Of a stretch of DNA of 64,000 bases, positions 14,455 through 40,298 are shown piece after piece; the stretch's first letter is position 1, and every line of letters starts with the position of its first letter. Location of the stretch: positions 6,695 through 70,694 of the forward strand of contig CAZFMF010000011.1 of the NCBI GenBank assembly GCA_964519985.1. The letters run 5' to 3'. The notes beneath the pieces are model-generated. The model saw only the letters and a list, made by a program, of their open reading frames with translations, did not search any database and had not been told where the DNA came from. This DNA comes from an uncultured Pseudobdellovibrionaceae bacterium (GTDB taxonomy: Bacteria; Bdellovibrionota; FAC87; UBA2466). Both the position numbers and the translations under genes were made by a program.

Positions 14455-14470
14455 ACTCCGGCGCCGGAGT
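14455..14470. repeat. REP-like 16-bp perfect palindrome ACTCCGGCGCCGGAGT (copy 1), between convergent genes
   Basis: Exact 16-mer, with flank CGCC..; one of five copies in the window. Confidence 0.8.
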
Positions 14471-14485
14471 TAACACGGTGAACGG

Positions 14486-15439
14486 CTAACGACCGTTCAA
14501 CCGCGCCCGATTGTCCAACTGACGCACCCGTAAGGCGGCCGCGGAGATTTCCTGGTCCTGAAAGAATTTCAGCCCTAAGTGATTTGCCACGTCGATACCA
14601 TCGCCGGTGAGGGTCAAACCGTCGTTGACGATATACCGAACATACTCTCCGTAACGCTCACCGGTTTGGGGATTGAAGGCAATGTGCGCGCGCAGTGAAA
14701 GGCTTTCCTCCGGATCGAACGCCTTGCCATTCGACCAACGCGTCGTTACCGGCCGACCATTCGAGAGGCGCGCAGACGTCGACAAAAACACGCCCAGCGA
14801 GGTCTTCTCATTTGAGCCGTCCAGCGCCAGGAGCTCGTACGTCTCGCTACCCAAAGAATGATCGAAGCAAGTCAATCGGTACGGTCGCCGATCCAGTTTT
14901 AATATCAGAGCAGTGTCTTCCAGGACTGAACCCCGCAGCTGCTCCTGCAGCACGGCCAAGTATTCCTTAATCAACGCCTGCGATTTTTCCCGTTTTCTCG
15001 GTTCCAGATTTCTAGCACCGGTGAGAGCCGAAGCGATTTGGTCCCGCAACGGCTCGAGTTGCAACCGGGAGATATCGTAAGCCCGTTGAACCTCCGATTG
15101 GAGTAGGAATAGATCCTTCTGCTCCGGCGCGTGAGCGAGTCGAGCACGCACTCGCCACACAAAGCCCCAAGCATCAATCACCTGCTCGGGGTCTTTTAAC
15201 AACTCGCCGACGCGATATCGTCTTTCACTATCTTGGTCGTTTTCGTATTTTCGCAGCAGCGGAAGCGCCTGTTCTCCCAAATCGAAAAGGCGCTGCGAGG
15301 CACTCGCTCGTTCCTCATAGGATTCGTCGCCTAGTTTCTCAATCAGGAGTTTGATATCGGTTTCTGAAACCGGCGGATCCGCGAAAAGCGGCGGCGTGAA
15401 GCCCAATACGAGGAGCGGCAGAACCCGAAATAGACTCAT
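14486..15439 (-). CDS. Secreted hypothetical protein (HEAT/PBS-lyase-like N-terminal repeats)
   Basis: Signal peptide MSLFRVLPLLVLGFTPPLFA. 317 aa. Confidence 0.4.
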   Translation of the reverse strand: MSLFRVLPLLVLGFTPPLFADPPVSETDIKLLIEKLGDESYEERASASQRLFDLGEQALPLLRKYENDQDSERRYRVGELLKDPEQVIDAWGFVWRVRARLAHAPEQKDLFLLQSEVQRAYDISRLQLEPLRDQIASALTGARNLEPRKREKSQALIKEYLAVLQEQLRGSVLEDTALILKLDRRPYRLTCFDHSLGSETYELLALDGSNEKTSLGVFLSTSARLSNGRPVTTRWSNGKAFDPEESLSLRAHIAFNPQTGERYGEYVRYIVNDGLTLTGDGIDVANHLGLKFFQDQEISAAALRVRQLDNRARLNGR

Positions 15440-15474
15440 GGCGGCACCCTACCACAAGTGCCCACGATTTTGCC

Positions 15475-16902
15475 CTAGCGTATCCCGCTGAAACCATCGG
15501 GCGTTTTGCAGCGTGAACTTTCCAAATGGAATCCCGCCATCTCCGGGTGGTAGAACTGGCCTTCCACCTTAAAATGCCCGGGGGGAATGAGGCACACATG
15601 GGAAATCTCGATCATCTGCAATTCGAGCTCGCAATTTCGTCCCTCCTGGTTGCCTTTCTTAAAGCAGGGCGACCCCTCTAACTGAATCTCCCCCTGCAGG
15701 GCTTTTTTCATTTTCTCGGGATCGTAAGTCGTCTTGAGCAGTTTTTTCAACGTATCGCTCTTGACGAAATCCTCCAAACCCTCAACTTTCCGCGGCGCGG
15801 GTCGCGTCACCGTTTTGGGCTTTTCAAGTTCCCAGTAGTATTTTCTATCAATCGTTTTTTTGAGCTTGCGCCGGGTTCCGTCCGGAAAATCGTGAAACGA
15901 TCTTTTTGAGGTTCGAAAAGCAACATCACTTTCCAATTTTGTAATCAGAGTGGGATCGATAATGTCCTCGCTATATACCTCGGAGTTAAAGGTCTCCGGT
16001 TTGCCGCTGACAAACGAATCGTAGGCGAGGGTCCAACGGGCCGATGCCGAAACCTCTTTCTCCGTACCGCCGTCCCTTTCGCACTCCGCACGCAAATTCT
16101 TTTGTGCCCGCTCTTTACAACGTTCGTCACCGCAGCCGGCATATCGCTCCGAAACAAATTCTTCTTTTTGCCCTGTCGATCGGATGTGATCGTCGAGCTC
16201 TTGCGCATCGAGTTTCCCATCCCCGTTGCGATCGGCGCTCCGCCAACGTTTACAGTCGCCGGAGTGGGCATCACACATGAGCTTGGCAATTTCATGAAAA
16301 GCGAAGAGCTTATTGTGGGCTACCTGATGAGCCTTACACTCACCTCCTATACAAGTGGATTTATCGAGCAACGAGCAAATCCCCGCGTGGCACGTGCCGA
16401 GCCAGAACTTTGATTTTTTTGCGACCGATACAGCTTCCTGCACCCACCGATCCCCATCAAAAAACTTCAAGGGCGAGTTTTCCGAGCCCACCTGATACCG
16501 AGAGGGACTTTCGTACCCTGGACTGCCGTGCGCATTGAGCAGGCCGAGATCATTGGGGCCCATGCGCTCGCTTTTGAGAACATCGGCAACCTGACCGAGG
16601 GGGACATCGTCGTGGTGCTTGACCTCAATCCCGCACGCTTTGAAGGGATCCAGATACGAGTTCACTTGCACGGCCCGATCTCGCGTTGTCTTCGTTGTCT
16701 CGACTTCAACCGTACTGTAACCGGACCGAATGACTTCGGTCTTTACCGTAACCTGTTCCTTTCGCCCGTAAGAGAACACCACGACCTTCGGAGCGGTGCG
16801 TATCCGACGACTCTCTTCCAATGTCTCGTGAAGTGGCTTTTTGATGTCTCGGGCTATGAGGTCCGCCGCGAAAAGCAGAAGGAGAAGCAAGAGATTGCGC
16901 AT
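15475..16902 (-). CDS. Secreted hypothetical protein with an EF-hand-like calcium-binding motif
   Basis: Signal peptide MRNLLLLLLLFAADLIA. DRNGDGKLDAQELDDH matches the EF-hand loop. Cys-rich central region. Confidence 0.45.
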   Translation of the reverse strand: MRNLLLLLLLFAADLIARDIKKPLHETLEESRRIRTAPKVVVFSYGRKEQVTVKTEVIRSGYSTVEVETTKTTRDRAVQVNSYLDPFKACGIEVKHHDDVPLGQVADVLKSERMGPNDLGLLNAHGSPGYESPSRYQVGSENSPLKFFDGDRWVQEAVSVAKKSKFWLGTCHAGICSLLDKSTCIGGECKAHQVAHNKLFAFHEIAKLMCDAHSGDCKRWRSADRNGDGKLDAQELDDHIRSTGQKEEFVSERYAGCGDERCKERAQKNLRAECERDGGTEKEVSASARWTLAYDSFVSGKPETFNSEVYSEDIIDPTLITKLESDVAFRTSKRSFHDFPDGTRRKLKKTIDRKYYWELEKPKTVTRPAPRKVEGLEDFVKSDTLKKLLKTTYDPEKMKKALQGEIQLEGSPCFKKGNQEGRNCELELQMIEISHVCLIPPGHFKVEGQFYHPEMAGFHLESSRCKTPDGFSGIR

Positions 16903-17050: not shown

Positions 17051-17066
17051 ACTCCGGCGCCGGAGT
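17051..17066. repeat. REP-like palindrome ACTCCGGCGCCGGAGT (copy 2), between divergent genes
   Basis: Exact 16-mer. Confidence 0.8.
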
Positions 17067-17134: not shown

Positions 17135-17941
17135 ATGCGGGCATGCGTACCGATTTTTGTTTGGGTCCTTTCAATCAGTGGCCTGGCGCGGGCGGGCGAA
17201 AGCTCATTGCCCGCCGGAATCACTCGGGTCAATTGTGTCGTCCGACTCTTGCCGAAGGGGCTCGACTCCTACCTTCTCTCGGCAAAACTGACTGGCACAA
17301 AAGGAGAGGGAAAATTTGAAGGAACCCACCCTAGGAAATTCCGAGTTGGCTCCGCAGGAACCTTACGGCTGGAGTTGGAGGGGTTCGTGGTCGTCCGCTA
17401 CACCGATCCCGAAAATGGAAACCAACCACTGACGGTGGCAGTGGAAAGTGTGGGCGATCCCCGCCGTCGAGCCGAGCAATCGCATCCCATCGAAACCGTT
17501 TCCTTCGAGCATAGGGCGATGACTCTTCTTACGACGGAAATTGCCGTTGGCTATTCTCTAGAGTTTTCTGAACACATGAATGCCTTGCGGGAGAGCTTAG
17601 CTCGGGCTTTTGGGTATCCGAACGTCGCCGTGCCCGCCGACTTTCTGCGAGTCGATGAATCCGAAGCCACCTTCACATCACGAATGCGACCTTTGAAGAA
17701 GCTTCCCCTCCCGCGTATGGGAATTGAAGCCTACCTCGCTCGCGCACGCGACTCCGAAGCGGCCAACCAGACCCGAGGAATTCTGAGCCATTTCGCGCGG
17801 TTTTTCGCGTCGGCGGCGGATAGTGAAGTCAAATCGACGCTTTTCTACGGTATCGATGACACCATGCAGGGCAGGATTTACTTAGAGTTTCACGATGTGG
17901 GCAGCCAGAGCACGTATCAGACTTACATAGAAGTTCGCTAG
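17135..17941 (+). CDS. Secreted hypothetical protein
   Basis: Signal peptide MRACVPIFVWVLSISGLARA. 268 aa. Confidence 0.4.
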   Translation: MRACVPIFVWVLSISGLARAGESSLPAGITRVNCVVRLLPKGLDSYLLSAKLTGTKGEGKFEGTHPRKFRVGSAGTLRLELEGFVVVRYTDPENGNQPLTVAVESVGDPRRRAEQSHPIETVSFEHRAMTLLTTEIAVGYSLEFSEHMNALRESLARAFGYPNVAVPADFLRVDESEATFTSRMRPLKKLPLPRMGIEAYLARARDSEAANQTRGILSHFARFFASAADSEVKSTLFYGIDDTMQGRIYLEFHDVGSQSTYQTYIEVR

Positions 17942-17971: not shown

Positions 17972-17989
17972 GATATCGGATATCCGATC
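17972..17989. repeat. GATATCGGATATCCGATC palindromic repeat, second copy, after the gene ending at 17941
   Basis: Shares GATATCGGATATCCGAT with the tRNA-adjacent hairpin. Confidence 0.6.
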
Positions 17990-18039
17990 TCTAACCGTGA
18001 TCTACTTTCCCCTGAAAGTCCTACAGCTTAACGACTTTT

Positions 18040-21000
18040 TTGCCGATACGGAGGCAGACGGGGGCCTCTTTGTCGGCAGTTCCGAAAATCAAAACCGAGT
18101 CGCTTCCCAGCGGCCTTGAGCTGCTAGAAGCGGTTGGCTCGGGGACTTCGAGCCTGGTGTACCGCGCGCGGCGGGACGGGAAGATCTACGCCGTCAAGAT
18201 GTCGAAAACGGCGGATCCGGATGGGCGTTTGCTCAAGGGCTTTCGAACGGAAGCGACGATTCTGGCGCAGATCAATCACCCGGCGCTCGTTCAAACCCAA
18301 GAAGTCGGTAGCCACCACGGTCATCCGTACATTGTGATGGAGTACCTCGAGGGTGAGCTGCTTTCTTCGCGGTTGAAGCGGGGCAAATTGCCCGGCGATG
18401 AAATCTATACCATCGCACTGAAACTCGCCGATGTTCTGCACAGCGTTCATAGCCACGGCGTCATCCACCAAGATTTGAAGCCCGAGAATATCTACTGGAA
18501 CCCGAAAACGGGTGTTCTCAAGCTATTCGACTTTGGGCTCGTGGGAACCCAAGGGCGAAATACCGCGGGACAGTCGATCGGCACGCTCGACTACATGTCA
18601 CCGGAGCAGTTGGGGATTCTCGATCGGCCCATTGATGCCCGTTCCGATTTGTATTCCCTGGGCGTCACCTTGCTCGAGTGCGTGGCCGAGCGAATGAATG
18701 TTCCGCAGATAGCCGGTCGCTCGGTCGAAGCGCAATTTCAGTACGAACCCACCGACATTCTCCGCCTCAACGAAGAGATCAAATACGAGTTTGCCAAGAT
18801 TCTTTGCACCCTACTGAAAAAAGATCCCGACGATCGGTTTGCATCGGCGGATGAACTTTTCACCGCCATCAACCGGAAAGTTTTTCACCGGCAGGATACC
18901 CTTTCCAAGCAGGAACACCTCGTCGGAAGAGAAAGTGAAAAAGAGCTTCTCTATAAGCATTGGGAGGACTGCCTTTCCGGTCGAGGCAGTTCCATCCTCG
19001 TAGAAGGAGAAGCAGGAGCGGGCAAAAGCGCACTGGTTTCGGATCTCGTGCGGCGCGCGCAATCGGACAACACCATCTCGCTTCGGGGCAAGTGCACGCA
19101 ACGCCTTCCCTTTGCCCCGCTGCGACGCTTTTTTGCCGAAATTCAAAAGACGATCTCCCACGGGCACCCGGCGTACAGCAAACTGGGTTCGAATTTCGTG
19201 GATAAGAGCGCGAGCATCCGTCGCATTAGCCCGGCGCTTGCCGATCATTTCGGACTCGGTGAGGGAGACATCGGCGGCAACCAAGATCGATTCTTTGAAG
19301 AGATAGCCGACGTCTTCGTCATTCTCTCGAGATACCTTCCCGTCATTTTGTTCATCGACGATATTCAATGGATCGATGCCGAGACCATGCGCACCCTTGA
19401 TTGCCTGTCGCCGAAACTGGCGGAGAACCGCATTCTGCTGGTCATGACCTCCCGAAGTAGCTTCGAATATCTCGACAGTCTTCAACTTTTTGAGGAACGA
19501 TTCAAAGTTTCTCGGAAAATTAGCTTGGGCTCTCTCACGCCGCAGGAAACAAATCTCCTCGTTCAAGCTTACTCCGGCAACCAAAGCATCGAAGAACGTT
19601 TTCTCACGCATGTCCATACCAGCACGGGTGGGCTGCCCTTCTCCGTTGGCGAGCTACTACGCAATATCAGTCTGAACGGTGTCCTCGCTCCGAACTGGGG
19701 AAAGCTCGAGGTCCAATGGGATCAGCTTTACAACTTGGACTTACCCTCGGATGTCATCGAGCTCGTTCGACGCCGTATTTCGAGTCTTTCGGAAACCACG
19801 CGCGAGGTACTGTGCACGGCTTCGATTGTGGGTGTTTCTTTCAACGTTGCCTTGTTGTCGAAGGTGACCGGAAAAAAAGAGTCGGTCGTCCTCGACGCCC
19901 TCACCCAGGGCCACCTCCAGTTTCTCGTGGAGCCGACGACCGAGGGCGAATACAAGTTCATACATGACCGAGTTCATGAAGCGTTTCGGGCGCAGCTAGA
20001 GGGATCCCGAAAGCGCGAGCTACATCAAAAGATCGCGCTCACACTGCTGGAGACCCGACCCACCGCGGCCCATGAAGTGTTTTCGATGGCGGATCACTTC
20101 TGGGATGGCTACCCGGAACAAAACACCAAGGAAGCTTACGAAATAAGCGTCGCGGCGGGGAAACTCGCGAGCGAGAGCCATGCGCTGGAAAAGGCCTACG
20201 AGTATTTCCTACGGGCCGAAGGCCTGGCCGCGAAGGCGGGACTGGACCCCGTCGACCCCGAATTGATCGGCGCTATCTGCACAAAGATTGGGAAGAAAGC
20301 GGAAGCCATTGAACGCTACCAAGCGGCGATTGATCGCACCTCCTCCAAGTGGTTGCGCGCCCGCATCTTGGGAAAAATGGCGGAAACTTACGTTACAAAT
20401 CTGGAGACGGCCGAAGGGCTCAAACTCATTGAACGGGCGTTCGCGGAAATCGATCTCGTTCCCCCTCACCCCGTCCGAACGATCGTTTCGATTGTTTGGG
20501 GGGTCGTAAGAGGGCTCTTTGGTTACTGGACCGGGATCGGTTATGGCAACGCGACCGGGGAAAAACGAGAACAGCTTAAGATCATCGTCAATCTGCATGC
20601 GCAATTCGGCTTCGTGAAGTTCTTCGACCTCCAGCCGCTTTACATGGTTTACTCGGGCCTAAGAAACTTGCACAACGTCAACCGAATCGGAGACAGCGCC
20701 GAATTGGTTAATCTCTACTGCAACCTCTATCTGGCGTTCGGGATTCTTAAGATTCGCCCGTTCTACGATAGCTTTTATCGCAGAGCTCGACTCGTTGCCG
20801 AACGGCTCGCCGATCCGCAACTTATCGCCCACGTCGAAGCGTACTATGCTTTCGCCATTGTCTATGCGGGAAAGGAAGTCCAGGCCGAGAACCGCGTCCG
20901 TCAGCTTCTCCATGACTATAAAAATTCCCTGATTACCGAGGACTACGTCTATCTATGCGGTGTTTACATGTCGAGCCTCGTGGTTCGAGGGTTCCCCGAA

Positions 21001-23060: not shown

Positions 23061-23076
23061 ACTCCGGCGCCGGAGT
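23061..23076. repeat. REP-like palindrome ACTCCGGCGCCGGAGT (copy 3), 24 nt after the giant kinase stop
   Basis: Exact 16-mer. Confidence 0.8.
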
Positions 23077-23139
23077 AGAGCCTATTTCTCACCGACGAGA
23101 CGTTCCAATTCGGGCCTACTCAATTTCACCGCTAGAGCG

Positions 23140-23185
23140 AACTTGTCTTTGCCTTCCATTTTGAAATGGGTCATAATTGGGTCAT
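23140..23185 (+). promoter_or_regulatory. Candidate vapBC operator/promoter region with a direct repeat GGGTCAT(A/G)A x2
   Basis: AAATGGGTCATAATTGGGTCATGAAAAGG lies immediately upstream of the antitoxin start. Type II antitoxins usually autoregulate via such repeats. Confidence 0.3.
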
Positions 23186-23462
23186 GAAAAGGTCACATTC
23201 TGGCGGTGGCGAAAAAGTGAGCATTGCAAACCTCAAAGCCAAACTTGCTTACTATCTCCGCAAAGTCCGCTTGGGAGAGGAAGTCATCGTCACCGAGCAT
23301 AAGCGACCCGTCGCCAAAATAGTTCAGCTGGAGCCCGAAGGGCTAGATATCATTCGAGCCAAAGGTTCCTTCGCGGAAGTTGCGGATACAAAACTGGAAC
23401 CTCTTGACCACGAAAAAGTAGACTCCCTATCGCACCTATTGAAGGAGCGAGGTAATCGTTAA
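23184..23462 (+). CDS. vapB: Type II antitoxin, Phd/YefM family (VapB-like)
   Basis: VSIANLKAKLAYYLRKVRLGEEVIVTEHKRPVAKIV is typical of Phd/YefM. The stop overlaps the ATG of the downstream PIN gene (TAATG). Confidence 0.7.
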   Translation: MKRSHSGGGEKVSIANLKAKLAYYLRKVRLGEEVIVTEHKRPVAKIVQLEPEGLDIIRAKGSFAEVADTKLEPLDHEKVDSLSHLLKERGNR

Positions 23463-23875
23463 TGATCGCCTACATCGACTCTTCGGTGCTACTTCGAGTT
23501 ATTTTTTCTGAGTCCAACTCGCTCAAGGAGTTTAAGAAGATCAAGGCGGCAGTATCGAGCGAACTGCTACGAGTGGAGTGCATGCGCACTATCGATCGTG
23601 TCCGCGTCACTAATAAGTTTTCCGATGAAGTTTATCTAGAGTATGTCCGACGCTTCTTTCTCTTCTTGGAAAAAATCGATCTCATTCCAATTCAACGAGA
23701 AATCCTGAATCGAGCCGCACAGCCTTTTTCCACCATCTTAGGTTCCTTAGACGCCATCCACCTCGCTTCCGCGATTTTGTACCGCGAAAGATATTCCTCC
23801 CGGCTTGTTCTTACGACCCACGATAAACAGCTATTTGGAGCTGCCCTCGCGTCTGGCTTCGAGGTGCTTGGTTAA
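23462..23875 (+). CDS. vapC: Type II toxin, PIN-domain ribonuclease VapC
   Basis: PIN signature: N-terminal IAYIDSSVLL (Asp), then conserved acidic residues. 137 aa, immediately downstream of the antitoxin. Confidence 0.8.
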   Translation: MIAYIDSSVLLRVIFSESNSLKEFKKIKAAVSSELLRVECMRTIDRVRVTNKFSDEVYLEYVRRFFLFLEKIDLIPIQREILNRAAQPFSTILGSLDAIHLASAILYRERYSSRLVLTTHDKQLFGAALASGFEVLG

Positions 23876-23972
23876 CATCTTGTGATCTAAAGCTAATTTC
23901 GCGCCTAAAAACTTGTCTTCTCGGCCTCGGATTGTGGTAGGAACTCGCCCACCTAAGTCCTGGAGTTCGTGT

Positions 23973-25655: not shown

Positions 25656-25680
25656 CAGTCCTAACTTCATCCGAGGCTCT

Positions 25681-25696
25681 ACTCCGGCGCCGGAGT
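25681..25696. repeat. REP-like palindrome ACTCCGGCGCCGGAGT (copy 4), 26 nt after the peptidase stop
   Basis: Exact 16-mer. Confidence 0.8.
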
Positions 25697-26646: not shown

Positions 26647-26671
26647 GATAAAACCGGTTCCGGCATTCGGA

Positions 26672-29880: not shown

Positions 29881-29990
29881 TTAAATAAAATGACACGATT
29901 TCAATTTTGTGTCAATTTACATAATTTTTCAAGAGAGCGCCAAACCCCAATTGGCCTGTTATGAGACGGATCGGCGGGTGACCGGAGGGA

Positions 29991-30701: not shown

Positions 30702-31093
30702 ATCGAATCGAATTTTGGGGTGAGAGATGACGCTCGTCTTTACCGTTCCTTCAAAATCCGATGCACTCAGACGCAGAGCAAGACCGGGCTTGTAGTAAAA
30801 GATCCCATTCTTTCGGGATCGCGTGTTCGAAAGCGTATCTTCGCTCCAGTGGGTATCCAGCTCAGTGGCATATTGGATGGGCCGCAGACCCGAGTTTTTT
30901 CGGATGAAACTCAGCAGCCGAAGTTCCGGGCCTCGCGTGGTGTCTCAAATTCGAAGGGTTTGCGTCTCAACCAAGAGACTTCCTTCAAAGGTGAGAAACG
31001 ACTAGCCGATGAGTCCGCTACGAACGCTGTCCCACAGGCTATTGAATCCCAAGGGTTCTTGCCGTCTATACAAAAATAAGACATACCCAACGC

Positions 31094-31309
31094 ATGGGAA
31101 CAACGAGGAGGAAGGCTGGGCGTCCGAAGCGCGTTCTTCCCATGAAAATGGTTGGAATTCGACTTCAAGAATCTCTCATTGAGAGACTTAGAAGACTCGC
31201 ATCTCAGGAAGGCCTCCCGTACCAAACTTACCTCCGAAAAGTAGTCTGGGATCACGCTTTTAAGCGCGAAACTTTGATCGGCGAAACGGGCAATGGAACA
31301 AAGGCCTAA
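31094..31309 (+). CDS. CopG/ribbon-helix-helix DNA-binding protein, BrnA-antitoxin-like
   Basis: GRPKRVLPMKMVGIRLQESLIERLRRLASQEGLPYQTYLRKVV matches the BrnA (COG3514) pattern GRP...........IRLD.D.L..FK......GYQT.IN..LR. No BrnT partner was detected upstream. Confidence 0.45.
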   Translation: MGTTRRKAGRPKRVLPMKMVGIRLQESLIERLRRLASQEGLPYQTYLRKVVWDHAFKRETLIGETGNGTKA

Positions 31310-34300
31310 CCGCAATAAGCCAAGCACTAGCCCTGGCGAAAGACTCCTTTACTGGCATCTGGGAAAATATCCAAAAGCAGTCCAGTGGGCTGTCCCGTCG
31401 CTTCTTGTCATAGGAGCCCTTGTTACCCAGCATTTTCTCCGACCGGTAATTGGAGAGCGCAGTTTTCTTCTCCTCTATCCGACCGTCTTTTTTAGCGCTT
31501 TGATCAGCGGCAGCCTCGGGCCTGGCGTTCTTGCAAGTTTCATTGCGACCATCGGCGCTTGGTACTTCTTTGTTCCCACTATTTACTCGTTCACTATCAC
31601 CCGGGTGGGCGATTTATTTGGCCTCGTCACGTTTGCATTCACCGGACTTAGCTTCAGTCTGATTAGCGGAAAGCTTCGTTCCATTCAAGGCGCGGAAAGT
31701 GAAGTTGCACAGCTCAGTGCCATCATTACCTCGAGCGATGATGCTATTATCAGTAAGACTCTGAATGGAACGATTCTGACCTGGAATCCGGGAGCAGAAA
31801 AAATATTCGGGTACTCTGCAGATGAGATGCAAGGGAAAAGCATCTTCTCAATTATCCCTGCAGATAAGCATGAAGAAGAGCGCAGAATATTGGATAGGCT
31901 GTCGCGAGGAAGCAGTCTCGTGCAATACGAGACCACTCGGATTCGAAAAGACGGCACGCTGGTCGAAATCGCTTCCACGATTTCTCCGATCAAAGACGAG
32001 AAAGGGAACGTCATTGGTGCCTGCAAAATCGGCAGGGACGTCACGGAAAAAAAAGCAACCGAAAGAAATATTCAGGAGCTTCTGAATACCACCTCCGTGA
32101 TCAACGAGGTCTACGCAAGAATGCGCGGAGAACCAACTACCAAGGAGCTCGCCGAAAATGTCCTCACCTACCTGGCCCATTCCCTAAAGGCTCATGTCGG
32201 GGCGTTTTATCGAGTAAATGAAGAGCGCCTGATACGCCTGGCTGGATTTGCCCTTCCCCATGAAACGAATATTCCATTTCCAGAAATGTTTCACAGGGGG
32301 CAAGGGCTTCTTGGACAGGCAGTAAAATCCGGGGAGCCCTTTATCCTTGCGACGATCCCTGAGAATTACCTCACCATCCGATCCGCACTCGGAGAAACAA
32401 AGCCAGCCTCTTTGCTATTCGTCCCCATTCAGCACGAAGGGAAGGTAATCGCGGCAATTGAGTTTGGGACGCTTAGTGGGTTCGCGGAAGAGCATCGGGT
32501 TCTTGTCAAGAATATCTCGGAGATTATCGGGGTTGGGCTTTTCTCGGCCGACACCCGGGAACAGCTAAAGCAGCTTTTAGAGGAAACGCGCGCTCAGCAA
32601 GATGAACTTCAGGCATCGAACGAGGAATTGGAAAATACAACCAACGAGCTACAAACCCAGCAAGAGGAACTAAAGCAGGCCAACGAAGAGCTGCAAGAGC
32701 AGAGGACGGCTCTCGAGGAACAAAAGGAATCTCTGGAGAAAACAAATCGCAAAGCGGAGGAAGCCCGCTCTGAGGTGCAACGAAAGGCCGAAGCTCTGGA
32801 GACGGCCGGCAAATACAAATCTGAGTTTCTCGCAAATATGTCGCATGAGCTCAGGACCCCATTAAACAGCATTCTCCTTCTTTCCAAAGCCATGTCCGAA
32901 AATTTGGAAGGGAATTTGAATTCCAATCAATTGGAATCAGCGCACACCATTCACTCTTCCGGAACGGATCTACTGAACCTGATTAACGATATCTTAGACC
33001 TTTCCAAGGTCGAAGCGGGTAAGCTTGAAATCAGAATTTCGGACGTCGAAATCTCGGAGCTGGTCGTGGCCCTCAAGAACCAATTCCGTGCCCAGATGGA
33101 GGCTAAGGATCTTTCCTTCGAGATCGAAATCGCCGAGCTCTGTCCCGAAGAAATTACTACGGATCGATTGCGGCTCGAGCAGATCCTGAAGAATTTTCTT
33201 TCTAACGCAATTAAGTTCACGGAAAAAGGCTTCGTCAAAGTCATTTTCCATGCGGTTCCTCATGACAATTCCTCAATTGCTATCACGGTCAAAGATACCG
33301 GAATCGGCATTCCGGAAGCACAAAGATCGCTCATTTTTGAAGCTTTCGAACAAGGCGACAACTCAATCAGTCGAAGATATGGAGGTACGGGATTGGGGTT
33401 GACGATCGCAAGGGAGCTCGGCGGTCTCCTGGGCGGAGAAATACAAGTCCATAGCGAGGAAGGCAAAGGGAGTGAGTTTACGCTCGTACTCCCCATTCAC
33501 TTCGATGAAGGCAGGACCGTGACCGCCATTAGTTCGCGGGCGCCTTCTGTGGACGTGACGCCTAGTGAACCCGCTCCCGCTGCCAAGGTTCGCAAAAATG
33601 GTTCGGAACGAGTGGATGATCGACGAAAGATTGATAAGGGTGACCGAGTCCTCCTTATCATTGAGGACGATCCTCATTTTGCCAAGATTCTCCTGGGACT
33701 TTGTCGAGGTCGCGGATTTAAATGCTTGCTCGCCACGAATGGTGAAGCGGGACTAACCGATGCCGATGAGTTCCAACCCGATGCTATCATTTTGGATTTG
33801 AGACTTCCCGCCATGAGCGGGATGACGGTTCTGGGAAGGCTTAAGAAAAATCTTCGGACCAGGCATATCCCAGTACATGTTATGTCGGTCGAAGAGAAAC
33901 GTAACGAGGTCCTCCAAATGGGAGCCGTGGGGTTTCTTTCAAAACCCGCCGATAAAGAACGACTCGAGGACGCTCTAAAGCGTATCGAAACAACGATTAG
34001 CACCAAAGCGAGGAGTGTTCTTGTCGTCGAAGATCGTAAAGTTGAGCGAGAGGCCATTCTCAAGCTTATCGGTAACGGAGACGTCACTTCCGTCGGTGCC
34101 GAGACTGGAGAAGAAGCGCTTCAATTACTCAGGACCAGAGTCTTCGACTGCATGATTCTCGATATAAAGCTCCCCGATTTTTCGGGGTTCGATCTATTGG
34201 ATAAAATGGAGAAGGACGAGACTCTTTCTCGGCCCGCCGTCATCATCTATACGGGACGAGATCTCACCAAAGATGAAATTGTGCGCTTAAATAAGTTTTC

Positions 34301-34817
34301 ACAGACCATTATTATAAAGGGCGTGAAATCAGAAGATCGCCTCTTCGACGAAGTCGCTCTCTTCCTTCATCGTGTCGTAGCGGACCTGCCCGAATCGAAA
34401 CAGCGTACCTTAGAACGTGTTCGACACCGCGAAGGGCTCTTCGAGGGAAAGAAAATATTGGTAGTCGATGATGACATGCGAAATGTCTTTGCGCTCCGAA
34501 GCCTTCTGCAAGGCAGAGGCTTTGAAATCTTTGCCGCTAAGACGGGTAAGGAAGCGCTGCGACACCTGGACGAACACTCGGACGTCGATATTGTCCTCAT
34601 GGATATCATGATGCCCGAAATGGACGGTTTTGAGGCCATGCGAAAAATAAGGGCCCAGGAAAAATTCATGAAACTCCCGATTATTGCCCTCACCGCGAAG
34701 GCAATGGTTGGAGACCGGGATAAATGCTTAGAGGCGGGAGCCAATGACTATCTCTCGAAGCCCATCGACGGCGAAAGTTTGCTCTCTTTGTTAAGAGTTT
34801 GGTTAACCAGAGCGTAA
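31293..34817 (+). CDS. Hybrid sensor histidine kinase: N-terminal membrane sensor domain (DUF4118/KdpD-like), PAS, GAF, long Glu/Gln-rich coiled coil, HisKA, HATPase_c and three C-terminal receiver domains
   Basis: H-box ANMSHELRTPLN. N/G boxes GTGLGLTIARELGGLLGGEI. Three REC signatures (LLIIEDDP...DAIILDLRLP, VLVVEDRK...DCMILDIKLPDFSG, ILVVDDDM...DIVLMDIMMPEMDG). Confidence 0.9.
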   Translation: MEQRPNRNKPSTSPGERLLYWHLGKYPKAVQWAVPSLLVIGALVTQHFLRPVIGERSFLLLYPTVFFSALISGSLGPGVLASFIATIGAWYFFVPTIYSFTITRVGDLFGLVTFAFTGLSFSLISGKLRSIQGAESEVAQLSAIITSSDDAIISKTLNGTILTWNPGAEKIFGYSADEMQGKSIFSIIPADKHEEERRILDRLSRGSSLVQYETTRIRKDGTLVEIASTISPIKDEKGNVIGACKIGRDVTEKKATERNIQELLNTTSVINEVYARMRGEPTTKELAENVLTYLAHSLKAHVGAFYRVNEERLIRLAGFALPHETNIPFPEMFHRGQGLLGQAVKSGEPFILATIPENYLTIRSALGETKPASLLFVPIQHEGKVIAAIEFGTLSGFAEEHRVLVKNISEIIGVGLFSADTREQLKQLLEETRAQQDELQASNEELENTTNELQTQQEELKQANEELQEQRTALEEQKESLEKTNRKAEEARSEVQRKAEALETAGKYKSEFLANMSHELRTPLNSILLLSKAMSENLEGNLNSNQLESAHTIHSSGTDLLNLINDILDLSKVEAGKLEIRISDVEISELVVALKNQFRAQMEAKDLSFEIEIAELCPEEITTDRLRLEQILKNFLSNAIKFTEKGFVKVIFHAVPHDNSSIAITVKDTGIGIPEAQRSLIFEAFEQGDNSISRRYGGTGLGLTIARELGGLLGGEIQVHSEEGKGSEFTLVLPIHFDEGRTVTAISSRAPSVDVTPSEPAPAAKVRKNGSERVDDRRKIDKGDRVLLIIEDDPHFAKILLGLCRGRGFKCLLATNGEAGLTDADEFQPDAIILDLRLPAMSGMTVLGRLKKNLRTRHIPVHVMSVEEKRNEVLQMGAVGFLSKPADKERLEDALKRIETTISTKARSVLVVEDRKVEREAILKLIGNGDVTSVGAETGEEALQLLRTRVFDCMILDIKLPDFSGFDLLDKMEKDETLSRPAVIIYTGRDLTKDEIVRLNKFSQTIIIKGVKSEDRLFDEVALFLHRVVADLPESKQRTLERVRHREGLFEGKKILVVDDDMRNVFALRSLLQGRGFEIFAAKTGKEALRHLDEHSDVDIVLMDIMMPEMDGFEAMRKIRAQEKFMKLPIIALTAKAMVGDRDKCLEAGANDYLSKPIDGESLLSLLRVWLTRA

Positions 34818-34822
34818 ACTCC

Positions 34823-35662
34823 ATGAGCTTAAAAGCCATTCAAGCGACGGATTACGAAAACCTTGAAATGAAACTTCTGATTGATGCCGTATACCAAAAG
34901 TACGGCTATGACTTTCGCAACTACGCGCACGCGAGCTTTAAGCGAAGGCTCGTAAAGGCCCGAATCAAACATGACTGCAAGAATATTGCGGAGATTCTTT
35001 ACCGAACGTTAACCGAACCCGATTTTTTTTCCGTTCTTATTAACGATCTCACCGTCACCGTAACTGAGTTATTTCGAGATCCTTCCGTTTACCGTGCCGT
35101 CCGGGAAGAGATTGTGCCACATTTAAAAACCTATCCCGAGATAAAGGTTTGGTGCGCAGGCTGCGCTGCGGGGGAAGAGGTTTTCTCATTAGCCATTCTT
35201 CTTGAAGAAGAAGGACTGTACAACCACTCGATCCTCTACGGAACCGATATCAATCCTTTGGCTTTGGAGTGTGCTCGTGACGGGATTGTATCGCTCGCCA
35301 AGATTAAAGACGGCACGAAGAACTATTTTGAAGCGGGCGGTAAGCAATCTCTCACTAGTTATTACACAGCGGAATACGATGCGGCTCTTCTAAGATCCGA
35401 ATTAAGAGAAAACCTTGTCTTCTCCGATCATAATTTGGCTACGGATGGGGTTTTTGGAGAAATGCAGCTGATCTTCTGCAGAAACACGCTCATCTACTTC
35501 AATCGAGATCTTCAGGACCGGGCGATCGGCTTGTTTCGAGAAAGTCTTTGCCCGGGTGGTTTCCTGTGTTTGGGAGCGAAAGAGAGCCTGAGCCTATCGA
35601 AGTATAGACGGGACTTTGAGGAAATTGGGCCTTCAAAAAAAATTTATCGAAAGAAATGGTGA
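34823..35662 (+). CDS. cheR: Chemotaxis protein methyltransferase CheR
   Basis: CheR SAM-binding region VWCAGCAAGEEVFSLAILLEE..YGTDINPLALECARDG and C-terminal LIFCRNTLIYFNRDLQ. Start placed at the ATG just after the kinase stop; the track ORF begins at 34799. Confidence 0.9.
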   Translation: MSLKAIQATDYENLEMKLLIDAVYQKYGYDFRNYAHASFKRRLVKARIKHDCKNIAEILYRTLTEPDFFSVLINDLTVTVTELFRDPSVYRAVREEIVPHLKTYPEIKVWCAGCAAGEEVFSLAILLEEEGLYNHSILYGTDINPLALECARDGIVSLAKIKDGTKNYFEAGGKQSLTSYYTAEYDAALLRSELRENLVFSDHNLATDGVFGEMQLIFCRNTLIYFNRDLQDRAIGLFRESLCPGGFLCLGAKESLSLSKYRRDFEEIGPSKKIYRKKW

Positions 35663-35666
35663 TTCC

Positions 35667-36257
35667 ATGGGGGAGAAAAATTACCAGGCAATCACTGTCG
35701 GCACTTCTCTCGGTGGCTTTCGTGCTTTGGAAGTCATTCTGCTGGGACTGCCGCGCGGATTTGGGGTTCCTATCCTTATCGTCCAGCACTTAGATCCAAA
35801 TTCCGACGGATTAGTTCCTTCGCTCCTGTCCGAAAAATGCGCTATTCGGATCAAGGAAGCGGATGACAAAGAGGCGATTGAGTCAGGAACTGTCTACGTT
35901 GCTCCGCCCAATTACCACCTTCTGGTTGAGCCCGATAGGACGCTATCGCTTTCCATCGATGAAAAGGAAAACTATTCTAGACCCTCCATTGACGTTCTCT
36001 TTGAATCCGCCGCGGAGGCCTATAAGGGGTCCCTAATCGGGATTGTCCTGACCGGCGCCAGTCACGACGGCGCCCGGGGGCTCGAGAAAATTAAGGCGAT
36101 GGGAGGACTCACGATCGTTCAGGATCCGGAAACCGCCGAAAGCAGGATTATGCCGGTAGCCGCGATTCGACAGGCAAAGGCAGACTATATTCTGCCGCTA
36201 CCAGAAATCACGGATTTCATAGTGCGTTGTTGTGAGGGAGAGGGAACAATCGTATGA
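35667..36257 (+). CDS. cheB: Chemotaxis protein-glutamate methylesterase CheB, catalytic domain only (no receiver domain)
   Basis: CheB_methylest motifs TVGTSLGGFRAL (Ser), VQHLDPN (His) and GIVLTGASHDGARGL (Asp). About 197 aa. The stop overlaps the next gene's start (ATGA). Confidence 0.85.
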   Translation: MGEKNYQAITVGTSLGGFRALEVILLGLPRGFGVPILIVQHLDPNSDGLVPSLLSEKCAIRIKEADDKEAIESGTVYVAPPNYHLLVEPDRTLSLSIDEKENYSRPSIDVLFESAAEAYKGSLIGIVLTGASHDGARGLEKIKAMGGLTIVQDPETAESRIMPVAAIRQAKADYILPLPEITDFIVRCCEGEGTIV

Positions 36258-37831
36258 AAGAGATCGTCAACGTTCTTGCTGTAGATGACAAGCCATCAAA
36301 TCTTCTGGCTCTCGAAAACACTCTTCAAGGACATAAAATCAATTTTGTTAAAGCTGGCACCGGTAATGAAGCTTTAGCCAGGCTCTTAGAAATGGAGTTC
36401 GCGTGTGTTTTGCTTGATGTAAAGCTCCCCGATATCGACGGATTTGAACTTGCCCGAATTATTCGCGGCGACGAGAAGACAAAATATCTCCCGATAATTT
36501 TCGTAAGTGGCCATCGGATTGGGCAAGATGACATTTTCACGGGCTACGAGATCGGAGCCTTTGACTACCTCCTCAAGCCGATCGACCCCACGATCGTCAG
36601 GAGCAAGGTAAATATATTTGCCGAGATGTATCGAAAAGAGACCGAGCGTAAACTCACACAACGAGCTCTCGAGGCAAGTGAAAAACACACACGCATGATT
36701 ATCGAGAACGCTACCGATGCTTTTGTGGCGATTGATGCCCAAGGAGTCATAACCGCCTGGAACCAATCCGCGGAACTTACATTCGGTTGGAGTAAGGACG
36801 AGATTGTTGGAAAACCGGTGGCCGAAACACTCATCCCCTCGCGCTATCGACCCGCCCACCAGAAAGGATTGGATCATTACTTCAAGACGGGAGAGGGTGC
36901 GGTCTTGAATAAACGTCTCGAGCTCTCGGCTCTGCACAAGGACGGCAGGGAGTTTCCCATTGAAATTTCCATCTCGGACGCTGCGGTAAAAGATGGAATC
37001 GCGTTCTTTGCCTTCATTCATGACATCTCGGAGCGCAAACGTGCCGAAAATGCAATCCGCAAAGCAAAAGAAGATCTGGAAGGACGCGTAAAAGAGAGAA
37101 CAATGGAACTAACGCTGCAAACGGAGGAGCTGAAGCGATCCAACGAAGAGTTGGCAAGATTCGCCTATATCTCTTCTCACGACCTCAAAGAGCCCCTCCG
37201 GATGATTTCGATGTATACCCAGATCCTGGAGGCAAGACATGCCGGACAGCTGAGTCAGGAGGCCAGGGACTGTATGGATATCGTAGTCGAGGGAGCTTCG
37301 AGAATGCGCACCCTCATTGACGATCTTCTTACGTATGCCCGGGTGGGACGAGGAGAAGAGAATTTTATAATGGTCGATACGAGCAAGGTCGTGGATAAGG
37401 TTATTGGCAATCTCAAGGCGTTAACCACCGAGACTGGCGCCGAGATCGATTGCGGGCGACTTCCGTCACTTGAAGCTCAAGAGGCTCAGATTACCCAGGT
37501 GTTTCAAAACCTGATCAGTAACGCGATTAAGTTTCGTGGGGCGGCGGCGCCCAAGATCAAGATCGAAGCCAAGGAAGTGGATGGATTTTATCAATTTTCA
37601 GTTCGAGACTTCGGTATCGGAATTCGTCCGGAATACCACGCCAAGTTGTTTAAGATTTTCCAAAGGCTCCATACCAAGGAAAAGTATCCAGGAACCGGGA
37701 TCGGTCTCTCCGTGTGCAAAAAGATAGTTGAGATTCACGGAGGCAAGATTTGGGTGGAGTCCGAAGAAGAAAAAGGGGCGACGTTTCATTTTACACTCCC
37801 CAAGACACAACCGACGGGAGTTAGACTTTAG
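36254..37831 (+). CDS. Response-regulator/sensor histidine kinase hybrid (REC-PAS-HisKA-HATPase_c), HWE/bacteriophytochrome-type H-box
   Basis: N-terminal REC (LAVDDKPSN...VLLDVKLPDIDG). PAS domain. H-box SSHDLKEPLRMI. ATP-binding GTGIGLSVCKKIVEIHGG. Confidence 0.9.
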   Translation: MKEIVNVLAVDDKPSNLLALENTLQGHKINFVKAGTGNEALARLLEMEFACVLLDVKLPDIDGFELARIIRGDEKTKYLPIIFVSGHRIGQDDIFTGYEIGAFDYLLKPIDPTIVRSKVNIFAEMYRKETERKLTQRALEASEKHTRMIIENATDAFVAIDAQGVITAWNQSAELTFGWSKDEIVGKPVAETLIPSRYRPAHQKGLDHYFKTGEGAVLNKRLELSALHKDGREFPIEISISDAAVKDGIAFFAFIHDISERKRAENAIRKAKEDLEGRVKERTMELTLQTEELKRSNEELARFAYISSHDLKEPLRMISMYTQILEARHAGQLSQEARDCMDIVVEGASRMRTLIDDLLTYARVGRGEENFIMVDTSKVVDKVIGNLKALTTETGAEIDCGRLPSLEAQEAQITQVFQNLISNAIKFRGAAAPKIKIEAKEVDGFYQFSVRDFGIGIRPEYHAKLFKIFQRLHTKEKYPGTGIGLSVCKKIVEIHGGKIWVESEEEKGATFHFTLPKTQPTGVRL

Positions 37832-37838
37832 GCGGCTT

Positions 37839-38294
37839 ATGAAGGTCAGCAACGAAATATTGGTCGTCGACGATAATAATGCGGATGTGAAGATCCTAAG
37901 AGACTTCTGGCCGGCGGAACTGGGAGCCTACCATTTCGTCGTAGCGGAAGACGGTGAGCAGGCACTTAACTACATTCACAAACGAGGAAGGTATTCGGGA
38001 CGAACAGCACCCTGCATCGTGTTCTTGGATCTTAACCTACCGAGAAAAAGCGGCACCGAAGTCCTGACCGAGATCAAAAAGCACCCCGAGTTCAAAAACG
38101 TCACCGTTATCGTCTTATCGGGTTCGGATGATCCAAGAGACAAAGCGCAGTGTCTCGCGCTGGGGGCCGAGCGGTTCTTCACCAAACCAAGTAATTTGGA
38201 AGGTCTCGGGGCCTTTTTTTCCGTAATGAAATCTTATCTCCGCAAGGATTGTGGAAACGAATCTGCGGGTGAGATAGGAGGAGACAAGGAATGA
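37839..38294 (+). CDS. Single-domain response regulator (CheY-like receiver)
   Basis: ILVVDDNNAD...IVFLDLNLPRKSG...VIVLSGSDDP receiver signature. Start placed at the internal ATG (MKVSNEILVVDD); the track ORF begins at 37728 and overlaps the upstream gene. Confidence 0.8.
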   Translation: MKVSNEILVVDDNNADVKILRDFWPAELGAYHFVVAEDGEQALNYIHKRGRYSGRTAPCIVFLDLNLPRKSGTEVLTEIKKHPEFKNVTVIVLSGSDDPRDKAQCLALGAERFFTKPSNLEGLGAFFSVMKSYLRKDCGNESAGEIGGDKE

Positions 38295-40228
38295 GTATCG
38301 CTAAATCATATGTTCTCTGTGTGGACGATGATCCCAGAAACCTCCTGGCTTTGAAGGCCGTACTCGCCAATGTGGGGGCCAATCTCGTCATGGCCCGTTC
38401 CGGAGCCGAGGCGCTTGAAGCAGCCGGGGAACGTGAGTTTGCGGTGATTCTCCTCGACGTCATGATGCCCGACATGGACGGGATCGAGACGGCAAAACGG
38501 CTTCGCGAACTGGAAAACGCGAAGCATAGCCCGATCGTATTCGTTACCGCCTACCCATTGGATGAGATGCGAACCTTTCGCGGTTATGCCTTGGGCGCCG
38601 TAGATTACATCCACAAACCAATTGGTACGGAAATTCTACAGTCTAAAGTTCGGGCATTCGTTCAACTCTTCGAGCTCCGTGAGCAGGTTAAAGAGCAGGC
38701 GATCAATGAGATGCGGCAACGTTGGGAAACGATGCGCCTTCGGGAAGAGTTTGAACGTGAGGCGTTACTTCATCTTTTCGTCGATAATGTAAAAGATTAC
38801 GGCGTTTTTTTTATCGATCCTGAAGGAGGCATCCACAACTGGAACCCGGCGTGCGAAAGTATCTTTGGATATCAGGAATCGGAAATTCTGGGGCGGGATT
38901 TTTCGACTATCTTCGTACCCGAAGATGTGAATAAGAGGGTGCACCTTTTGGAGCTTGAAAAAGCGAAAGAAAAAGGTCGAGCGGAGGATGAGCGATGGCA
39001 TCTGCGGAAAGACGGCACACGTTTTTGGGCGGACGGAGTGGTGACCCCGCTAAGAGACAAGAATGGAGAGCTACGAGGATTTTGTAAGCTGGTGCGTGAC
39101 AATACTCGGCGGAAAGAGTGGGAGGAGACACTTAAAAGAAGTGAAGATCGCTTTAGAATGGCGGTCGACTCCGCGCGATTAGGCACGTGGGACTACGATC
39201 CGAAGACGGGTAGCCTCGAGTGGTCCGATCGGGCGAAAGAGCTAGCCGGCCTCCCCGAGAATTCCACGGTAACTTACGAAACCTTTCTAGCTTCACTACA
39301 CCCTGAAGATCGCCCTCGCGTCGAGCAAAGAATAGCAGAAGCCCTGAGCGGAAAAGCCGACGGGCAATACGCGATTGAGTACCGAACGGTGGGTTTAGTC
39401 GATAAGATCATGCGGTGGCTCTATGTAAGGGGGAAAGTTTACACGGACGAGCAAGGCCTACCCACTCGTTTCATTGGAACGGTGATGGACATTACCGATG
39501 AAAAAAGAGCGGAAGAAGAACGAACGGCACTGATCGATAGCCTTAAGGGCTCGAATCGAGAGCTGGAAAGTTTTGCTTCTACGGCCTCGCATGATCTCCA
39601 GGAGCCACTCCGAATGATCTCTATGTATCTTTCGCTTCTCGAACGTCGCTTTCAAGGAAGATTGGGAGAAGACGAAAAAGAATACATGCATTCGGTTGTG
39701 AATGCCTCAGATAGAATGAAGCGTCTCACAACGGATCTACTTAGTTATTCGAGGCTATTCGGTGAGAAAATCGACTCAGGGCCAGTAGACCTGAACTCCG
39801 CGCTGGAGAAGGCTCTGGAGAATCTAAGTCTGGCGATTGAGGAAAGTGGCGCCAGAATTACGCGAGACCGACTCCCAATGATTCGCGGGAACGGCACGCA
39901 GTTAGTCCAGCTTTTCCAAAATCTTATCTCGAACGCAATCAAGTACCAAACGAGAAAATCCCTTCCGGAAATTTCTATATCGGCAATGCGACAAGACCAA
40001 CAATGGATAATTGCAGTTAAAGACAATGGTATAGGTTTCGATATGGAGCACTCCGGGAAGATTTTTGACGTCTTTCAACGTCTTCATTCCCGCACGGAAT
40101 ATGCTGGATCAGGACTTGGTCTCTCCACTTGTAGAAAAATCGTGGAGCATCATCAGGGAAGAATCTGGGCGGAGTCAGCGCCAGCCGATGGCTCGACATT
40201 TTACGTTGCCCTTCCCGTTTCCGAGTGA
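38291..40228 (+). CDS. Response-regulator/sensor histidine kinase hybrid (REC-PAS-PAS-HisKA-HATPase_c)
   Basis: REC (VLCVDDDPRN..ILLDVMMPDMDG). Two PAS blocks. H-box ASHDLQEPLRMI. ATP-binding GSGLGLSTCRKIVEHHQG. Confidence 0.9.
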   Translation: MSIAKSYVLCVDDDPRNLLALKAVLANVGANLVMARSGAEALEAAGEREFAVILLDVMMPDMDGIETAKRLRELENAKHSPIVFVTAYPLDEMRTFRGYALGAVDYIHKPIGTEILQSKVRAFVQLFELREQVKEQAINEMRQRWETMRLREEFEREALLHLFVDNVKDYGVFFIDPEGGIHNWNPACESIFGYQESEILGRDFSTIFVPEDVNKRVHLLELEKAKEKGRAEDERWHLRKDGTRFWADGVVTPLRDKNGELRGFCKLVRDNTRRKEWEETLKRSEDRFRMAVDSARLGTWDYDPKTGSLEWSDRAKELAGLPENSTVTYETFLASLHPEDRPRVEQRIAEALSGKADGQYAIEYRTVGLVDKIMRWLYVRGKVYTDEQGLPTRFIGTVMDITDEKRAEEERTALIDSLKGSNRELESFASTASHDLQEPLRMISMYLSLLERRFQGRLGEDEKEYMHSVVNASDRMKRLTTDLLSYSRLFGEKIDSGPVDLNSALEKALENLSLAIEESGARITRDRLPMIRGNGTQLVQLFQNLISNAIKYQTRKSLPEISISAMRQDQQWIIAVKDNGIGFDMEHSGKIFDVFQRLHSRTEYAGSGLGLSTCRKIVEHHQGRIWAESAPADGSTFYVALPVSE

Positions 40229-40274
40229 CGGCACGGGACCGAATCTTCCCATTGCTTTCGAACGAGGTAGTAAG

Positions 40275-40298
40275 CGCCACTCCGGCGCCGGAGTGGCG
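40275..40298. repeat. REP-like palindrome, extended 24-bp form CGCCACTCCGGCGCCGGAGTGGCG (copy 5), after the histidine kinase stop and before ung
   Basis: Exact 16-mer core with a 4-bp perfectly complementary extension on each side. Confidence 0.8.

Follow-up and report, generated by a model that had tools for sequence, protein, structure and literature searches.

A 16-bp palindrome dispersed between genes in a Pseudobdellovibrionaceae contig, with a DUF222-like/HNH nuclease as its candidate cognate protein

A 64,000-nucleotide stretch of DNA from an uncultured Pseudobdellovibrionaceae bacterium (GenBank assembly GCA_964519985.1, contig CAZFMF010000011.1, positions 6,695 to 70,694 of the forward strand; the whole stretch is referred to as the window, and its first letter is position 1) contains exactly five copies of the perfect 16-base palindrome ACTCCGGCGCCGGAGT, all of them between genes. 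We interpret these 16-mers as dispersed hairpins of Bdellovibrionota, similar to the repetitive extragenic palindromes (REP), which belong to the most frequent kinds of non-coding sequence in bacterial genomes, with a DUF222-like/HNH nuclease as the cognate protein, a reading to which we give an even chance of being correct. In related genomes the hairpin was consistently associated, lineage by lineage, with genes encoding DUF222-like/HNH proteins, which makes this nuclease the most likely cognate protein. Exact copies, shared flank bases, mosaics in relatives and location in insertion-tolerant sites point to spread by copying and are less well explained by operators or terminators that evolved independently.

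The copies start at positions 14455, 17051, 23061, 25681 and 40279. In 100 dinucleotide-preserving shuffles of the window no match to ACTCCGGCGCCGGAGT was obtained, and thus the first-pass annotation, which had reported five exact copies as a recurrence beyond chance, was borne out. Relatives with one or two mismatches were absent from the window, and a tolerance of up to three mismatches added four matches, all with three mismatches and of chance type. The nested 14-mer and 12-mer sub-palindromes were confined to the same five sites, as was the pattern ACTCCG-N4-CGGAGT within the window. Coding sequence covers about 91% of the window in a crude gene map, on which the intergenic location claimed for all five copies was confirmed; the chance probability of such a distribution is therefore ca. 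0.09^5, or about 6e-6. The density of the 16-mer is approximately one per 13 kb with none in coding sequence (CDS), the nearest pair is 2.6 kb apart, and the window copies are singletons without doublets of the REPIN type (REP doublets forming hairpins).

The flanks of the window copies were otherwise unrelated, with two exceptions. Copy 3 (23061..23083, plus strand) consists of the 16-mer and a 7-nt tail, AGAGCCT, and copy 4 (25674..25696, minus strand) consists of AGGCTCT followed by the 16-mer, i.e. the 23-nt unit of copy 3 in opposite orientation (23/23 nt identity between 23061-23083 and 25674-25696, inverted). Copy 1 (14455..14470) has a left CGCC extension (14451-14470), which it shares with copy 5 (40275..40298), where CGCC-16mer-GGCG forms the perfect 24-bp palindrome CGCCACTCCGGCGCCGGAGTGGCG; the extended form previously described for the copy at 40279 was thus verified. 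Copy 2 (17051..17066) lies in intergenic DNA between divergent starts. The flank bases common to copies 3 and 4 and to copies 1 and 5 favour copying over independently evolved binding sites.

Outside the window, at least 104 stretches were returned when 185,579 genomes, each representing one species, were scanned for the motif, including at least 25 copies of the 16-mer in at least 10 metagenome-assembled genomes (MAGs) of Bdellovibrionota with 40-55% GC. Genes in the MAGs were defined by crude, greedy calling of open reading frames (ORFs), on the basis of which about 60% of the Bdellovibrionota copies among the matches listed were intergenic, and several of the MAGs listed carried the 16-mer on 3-5 contigs. 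Among the same listed matches, genomes of 60% GC or higher had single 16-mers, nearly all in long ORFs, a pattern that chance matches would be expected to give. Extension of the palindrome by at least 3 bp of arbitrary complementary bases was seen in 9 of 43 copies of the Bdellovibrionota MAGs versus about 2% expected, and the variants encountered in MAGs preserved the pairing, namely ACTCCGACGTCGGAGT and one odd-length form, ACTCC-TCGAC-GGAGT. In a Pseudobdellovibrionaceae MAG (L097; L numbers denote loci fetched from related genomes and metagenomes), a mosaic with a 142-bp period, resembling bacterial interspersed mosaic elements (BIME), was located downstream of a gene at 614-930, where a hairpin of the 16-mer type alternated with a second hairpin, CAGTTCCG-CTTC-GGAACTG; in L068, the 16-mer formed part of 157-bp units. 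The repeat family is patchy, since two relatives at about 51% protein identity (L107 and L108) had no 16-mer in 19 kb and 15.6 kb. An origin from phages was considered and rejected, as nine singleton matches in an IMG/VR scan correspond to the background level. One copy, at position 2335 of the Acidobacteriota MAG locus L072, is located inside a sugar-transferase-like ORF together with 13 nt of flank typical of the Pseudobdellovibrionaceae MAG JBIKLL01, and may be due to binning contamination or horizontal transfer.

Clustering of every ORF located up to 1.5 kb from a MAG copy yielded one multi-locus protein family, the eight members of which were exactly the cases where the 16-mer resides inside a CDS. 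These 8 of 25 MAG copies (among the matches listed) are always 250-370 nt before the stop codon. The proteins have a helical N-terminal region with weak ParB/KorB-like similarity. Their C-terminal HNH domain contains both the catalytic D-H...N residues and the CxxC zinc ligands. DUF222 (PF02720) was found in precomputed annotation of 6 of the best 120 homologues, and did not reach E = 0.01 in the three proteins that were scanned. Assignment of the HNH protein to a defence system was rejected, as the PADLOC and NCBIfam matches (IscB, type II restriction endonuclease) cover the generic HNH domain only. In an AlphaFold model (mean predicted local distance difference test score, pLDDT, of 83.5), the hairpin site falls in the sole disordered segment, residues 244-271 with pLDDT below 50, which forms a linker between the two domains.

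In this hypervariable stretch the 16-mer is translated in two frames, as TPAPE or as SGAGV. TPAPE was present at the site in 30 of the best 120 homologues, and none of the 120 S41 proteins used as controls had it. Another 25 of the 120 homologues had TPTSE, TPASE, TPTPE or TPSPE, which are one- or two-base variants (TPTSE equals ACTCCGACGTCGGAGT), and one had SDVGV, i.e. ACTCCGACGTCGGAGT read in the other frame. The codons at the site were fixed, with ACT in 19 of 21 genes (background 0.28), CCG in 15 of 21 (0.31) and GAG in 20 of 21 (0.43), and the base following the GAG codon was T in 16 of the 21 genes. Five of the 21 had been recovered via the 16-mer itself; the same trend was seen in the remaining 16. 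Use of two reading frames together with fixed synonymous positions indicates that the nucleotide sequence, and not the peptide, is conserved.

The linker was also surveyed in 78 metagenomic loci encoding relatives of the HNH protein, 62 of them with full-length genes, by searching the region 140-420 nt before the stop codon. Perfect stems of at least 8 bp were present in 18 of 62 linkers versus 0 of 62 equal-sized windows of the N-terminal domain, and in a mean of 1.2 (maximum 4) of the linkers after shuffling. The stem sequence differs between lineages while the pairing is kept. Stem types include ACTCCG-(GCGC/ACGT/ACGG/ACGC)-CGGAGT, ACTTTCG-CC(G/A)G-CGAAAGT, CCCGCG-CCAG-CGCGGG, GTTTCGACAC-(CG/TG)-GTGTCGAAAC, of which one example is a 38-bp perfect palindrome, and ACTTCATC-(CG/TG)-GATGAAGT, in addition to several further single examples. 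Loops may be non-palindromic, as in CCAG, which is compatible with a hairpin formed by a single strand and equally with a pair of half-sites around a 4-bp spacer left uncontacted. The longest linker hairpin is a perfect palindrome of 38 bp, AACGCAGGGTTTCGACACCGGTGTCGAAACCCTGCGTT, in the linker-coding region of the HNH gene at L182 1659-1696. A neighbouring gene common to L048, L068, L094 and L072 was initially a candidate cause of the similarity between the flanks in these loci, and was discarded when the similarity was traced to the repeat itself, which has a longer local form there; in L048 and L094, this longer form is inside the HNH linker.

An identical short sequence in an otherwise hypervariable linker, between the two domains of multi-copy paralogues, might also be explained by a recombination or gene-conversion site at which HNH paralogues exchange their N- and C-terminal halves, the intergenic copies being by-products or secondary att-like sites. 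This explanation is very improbable, as it accounts neither for five intergenic copies in a window devoid of HNH genes nor for the hairpin arrays upstream of HNH genes described below, and no recombinase was consistently adjoining in the loci examined. DNA uptake sequences for natural transformation, in turn, would be expected to be exact across copies and genomes, as the 16-mer is. The low density, the absence from coding sequence of the window, the change of stem between lineages with pairing kept, and the tie to one gene family, which uptake leaves unexplained, make this alternative extremely unlikely.

Copies situated outside the HNH gene were always of the hairpin type of the local gene, in all loci having outside copies (including L002). 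Three dispersed copies of ACTCCGACGTCGGAGT in L173 and two in L178 all matched (3/3 and 2/2, respectively), and were intergenic or in very short, doubtful ORFs. In MAG CAITVN01, the GGCGCC type was identified in the HNH gene and in five other places. L198, with 58% GC and hence near the composition of the window, has two exact 16-mers, one situated 118 nt ahead of its HNH gene and the other in the linker, and L166, L170 and L194 have one copy each just upstream of the HNH gene. On four contigs of ERZ761609 (L154, L156, L159 and L160), arrays of 2-3 CCCGCG-CCAG-CGCGGG hairpins with a spacing of ca. 45-100 bp are located 300-400 nt upstream of four HNH paralogues (around 9600-9710 in L154, L156 and L160, and at 1281-1443 in L159), and the linkers of these paralogues contain the same CCCGCG hairpin one to three times each.

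On the basis of these associations, a mechanism can be proposed. The element would be a short stem-loop inverted repeat, ACTCCG-NNNN-CGGAGT, common to a set of Bdellovibrionota genomes, copies of which would build up only in harmless places, i.e. intergenic DNA and disordered protein linkers, and would be kept sequence-exact. In related genomes, the nuclease gene bears the hairpin of its own lineage in linker DNA, and often again 60-400 nt upstream. The helical N-terminal domain may recognise the inverted repeat and the HNH domain may nick at or near it, whereupon nick-initiated repair or copying would maintain the exact sequence and occasionally seed new copies together with a few flanking bases. 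The copy in the linker could then act as a heritable master or as an autoregulatory site, and termination or mRNA stabilisation at 3′ ends, if any, would be a side effect. The genome from which the window derives would presumably encode such an HNH gene as well.

Several observations weigh against this interpretation. The association between HNH genes and hairpins is purely correlative. A tblastn search of the 64-kb window with the HNH protein gave nothing better than E = 0.1, no HNH domain was detected by Pfam or NCBIfam annotation of almost all the larger ORFs there, and the genes downstream of copies 2 and 4, which were considered as diverged DUF222 genes, were rejected with hhalign probabilities of at most 0.1%. 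With no HNH gene in the window, the link between hairpin and HNH protein is for this genome an extrapolation from other genomes. Moreover, in L199, L200 and L201 the linker contains an exact 16-mer, yet the 10 kb to each side are free of further copies, and thus the gene-internal hairpin alone does not cause dispersal. The HNH paralogues are old (40-64% identical), and synteny of L199 and L200 indicates an old resident gene rather than a recently mobile one.

The surroundings of the window copies were heterogeneous. Copy 1 is located between the convergent 3′ ends of 13827-14396(+) and 14486-15439(-). Copy 2 is placed between two divergent starts, that of 15475-16902(-) at a distance of 148 nt and that of 17135-17941(+) at 68 nt, and hence is not at a gene end. 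The 475-aa product of 15475-16902(-) is identical to a sequence already on record, and the search for its homologues returned none but itself. The remaining copies are in tandem spacers: copy 3 is 23 nt past the stop of a gene for a 1665-aa Ser/Thr kinase and 89 nt before the start of a phd antitoxin gene, copy 4 is 25 nt past the stop of an S41 peptidase gene and 80 nt before the start of 25777-26646(+), and copy 5 is 50 nt past the stop of a hybrid histidine kinase gene (38291-40228) and 74 nt before the ATG of ung (40369). Accordingly, the statement in the first-pass annotation that each copy is within tens of nucleotides of a stop codon applied to four copies and failed for copy 2, which adjoins no real stop. 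Its proposal of position 40369 as the start of ung was supported both by the ATG there and by NCBIfam Ung profiles, which align from protein residue 13-14. The adjoining genes (Ser/Thr kinase, phd/PIN toxin-antitoxin, S41 peptidase, hybrid histidine kinase, ung and hypotheticals) are functionally unrelated.

Copies 3 and 4 bracket a segment of 2.6 kb comprising the phd/PIN toxin-antitoxin pair (23166-23875) and the S41 peptidase gene (23913-25655). The best named homologues of the peptidase were in Bdellovibrionaceae, Oligoflexales and Bdellovibrio, the closest being only 51% identical. The 1665-aa protein encoded at 18040-23037 joins Ser/Thr kinase, AAA_16, GAF and SpoIIE-type PP2C phosphatase domains.

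This arrangement bears on the idea that the 16-mers are operator sites of a dimeric regulator, possibly the DUF222 protein itself, which were selected in place and not copied, and which define a regulon with autoregulation of the HNH gene. The layout of the motif, in which a pair of 6-bp half-sites is always 4 bp apart, the position of four of five window copies 68-89 nt upstream of a start codon, the copies upstream of HNH genes and the weak ParB/KorB-like similarity of the N-terminal domain would all agree with operators, whereas copy 1 between two convergent 3′ ends and the functionally unrelated neighbour genes would not. In addition, identity at all 16 positions with no degenerate sites is unusual for operators, and shared flank bases, tandem arrays, mosaics and extension beyond the core with arbitrary sequence are not features expected of them. 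We therefore regard operators as quite unlikely.

In folding predictions, the bare 16-mer formed a hairpin with a 6-bp stem and a GCGC loop (-7.8 kcal/mol). The only copy which folded better than shuffled sequence was copy 5, with a 10-bp stem and -26.2 kcal/mol (z = -2.55). No T-tract and no terminator call was obtained at any of the five copies in a terminator scan of the window. When intergenic copies of the window and related genomes were pooled, about 4 were in convergent, 5 in divergent and 9 in tandem geometry on the basis of crude ORF calls, and hence there is no bias towards 3′ ends. Covariance models of Rfam recovered only a tRNA-Gly from the window, also at relaxed thresholds over 14-41 kb, and gave no match in 10 HNH or mosaic loci, the HNH-associated HEARO/omega RNA models included.

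Consequently, the role as gene-end terminators which the first-pass annotation had suggested for the palindromes was left unsupported by the absence of T-runs and terminator calls, by the divergent setting of copy 2 and by the pooled geometry. Terminators or 3′-end mRNA stabilisers selected at gene ends would be in line with a GC-rich stem, particularly the 10-bp stem of copy 5 (-26 kcal/mol), and with the location of four of five copies 15-58 nt past a stop codon. Such a role does not explain the conserved copy inside HNH coding sequence, and local folding z-scores were unremarkable save for copy 5; as the origin of the family it is distinctly improbable. For annotation, it follows that these palindromes should not be taken for terminators and that the ung start is fixed at 40369.

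Classical REP sequences are mobilised by a REP-associated tyrosine transposase (RAYT) with a Y1/HUH fold, and the first-pass annotation had proposed the palindromes as possible RAYT targets. Pfam and NCBIfam annotation, which covered nearly all of the larger ORFs in the window, revealed no Y1 transposase, and tblastn with E. coli RayT gave no match in the whole window. In 805 kb of sequence, i.e. the window and all collected Bdellovibrionota loci, the same query returned one match, at L097 5725-6141, with an HFH motif and a YLYHNPV motif. Flanks of this RAYT-like gene were without ACTCCG-type hairpins, the nearest copies being about 5 kb away. The gene, at 5725-6357, seems to be split by a stop codon, and neither of the two hairpins of the L097 mosaic flanks it. 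The 16-mer itself has no GTAG/GTGG-type tetranucleotide head, and its unit is a perfect 16-mer beginning with ACTC, not an imperfect palindrome of 20-40 nt. A RAYT gene bracketed by its own REPs, the defining feature of REP-RAYT systems, was thus not seen where it could be looked for, in the window and in the 805 kb. Of the REP-like designation, the parts that stood were dispersal, extragenic location, hairpin formation, recurrence in Bdellovibrionota and the ability to form BIME-like mosaics, and the part left without support by these searches was the role as a RAYT target.

An alternative interpretation would be a classical REP or REPIN family mobilised in trans by a RAYT located elsewhere in the genome, with the copies in HNH linkers as tolerated insertions. 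The dispersed, extragenic and hairpin-forming character of the element speaks for it, as does L097, where a two-hairpin mosaic and a RAYT-like gene with HFH and YxxxNPV motifs occur in the same 8-kb locus. It is opposed by the same gene being devoid of ACTCCG flanks and the sole match in 805 kb, by the missing head and by the lack of REPIN doublets in the window; furthermore, random tolerated insertion would leave unexplained why hairpins of differing sequence are found at the same linker position in many lineages. We consider mobilisation by a RAYT unlikely.

Besides the 16-mer, two other repeat families were observed in the window. A second palindrome family, GATATCGGATATCCGAT(C/A)TC, is present at 17972-17991 and 26675-26694, just past the stops at 17941 and 26646, respectively, and its second copy adjoins tRNA-Gly(ccc) at 26719-26794(-); searches of the other Bdellovibrionota loci fetched did not recover this family. 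A third, composite family of ca. 50-100 nt (44538-44598, 46994-47131 and 63701-63794) is built from CGTCATTCCGAGCGYAGCGAAGGAATC, a hairpin CGCATCGC-TTC-GCGATGCG, and CCCTCGCAATGACGG, the last in tandem duplicate at 47100 and 47115. The region 26000-40300, which begins beside the tRNA-Gly gene, has a GC content of 0.48-0.53 versus 0.55-0.61 in the rest of the window, and contains CheR, CheB and four hybrid histidine-kinase/response-regulator genes. This low-GC stretch may be an acquired island.

Returning to the nuclease interpretation, the RAYT/HUH transposase is to our knowledge so far the only established mechanism by which REP repeats are made, and we know of no assigned role for the DUF222-HNH genes that Bdellovibrionota and Actinobacteria possess in large numbers. 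In the literature searched, the coverage of which was incomplete, neither the 16-mer nor any link of HNH/DUF222 proteins to a linker hairpin or to dispersed palindromes was found. As a tentative generalisation, which we hold to be possible although somewhat short of an even chance, DUF222-HNH nucleases, a large family including those of mycobacterial REP13E12, could be the cognate enzymes of an unrecognised REP-like class, where each paralogue carries, maintains and in some lineages disperses its own linker hairpin by nick-initiated copying, constituting a second system independent of RAYT. If this were true, an HNH family co-evolving with a dispersed hairpin would represent a second route to REP-type repeats, the DUF222-HNH genes, including REP13E12 of Mycobacterium tuberculosis, would gain a testable function, and a set of natural pairs of short hairpins and nucleases would be open to direct assay.

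Compared with known systems, the 16-mer resembles HIP1 (highly iterated palindrome 1) and the DNA uptake sequences (DUS) or uptake signal sequences (USS) in being an exact short sequence which is repeated through the genome and common to related taxa. Those sequences, however, are 8-12-mers with a frequency of about one per kb and are abundant in genes, whereas the 16-mer is about ten times sparser, non-coding in the window, and co-varies in both arms between lineages. From ParB-parS and KorB-OB systems it differs in that, within single MAGs, copies turn up on many different contigs and are not gathered in one origin-proximal cluster, in that the loop may be non-palindromic (CCAG), and in that the partner protein has a nuclease domain; the canonical parS, TGTTNCACGTGAAACA, had no match in the window at up to two mismatches. 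With IS200/IS605 TnpA the family shares a nuclease gene and specific short hairpins co-varying with it. The fold and chemistry are HNH instead of HUH, no defined element ends are present, and the HNH genes are old syntenic paralogues, unlike recently transposed copies.

The protein side has a close counterpart in M. tuberculosis, where REP13E12/DUF222-HNH genes are listed among the repetitive elements (PMC10589994). REP13E12 combines a DUF222-type N-terminal region with a C-terminal HNH domain, an architecture which the hairpin-bearing proteins appear to share, some of the homologues matching PF02720, and both have several diverged paralogues per genome; a linker hairpin or dispersed solo copies are not described for REP13E12 in the literature searched. 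On the DNA side, the 16-mer is unlike REP/REPIN-RAYT systems in being a perfect palindrome without a GTAG-type head and in occurring as singletons instead of REPIN doublets. Its gene is present in multiple copies and encodes a DUF222-like/HNH (beta-beta-alpha-metal) nuclease, where REP systems have a single-copy HUH/Y1 transposase, and the hairpin is found inside the CDS, in the disordered linker, and upstream, rather than bracketing the gene. In common with the REP/REPIN-RAYT systems and BIMEs of Enterobacteria and Pseudomonas, it is a short, extragenic hairpin repeat with roughly one copy per 10-15 kb, in which an exact master sequence dominates, mosaics with other hairpins can be formed (here in L097), and the repeat is paired with one lineage-specific protein gene which has the cognate hairpin beside it.

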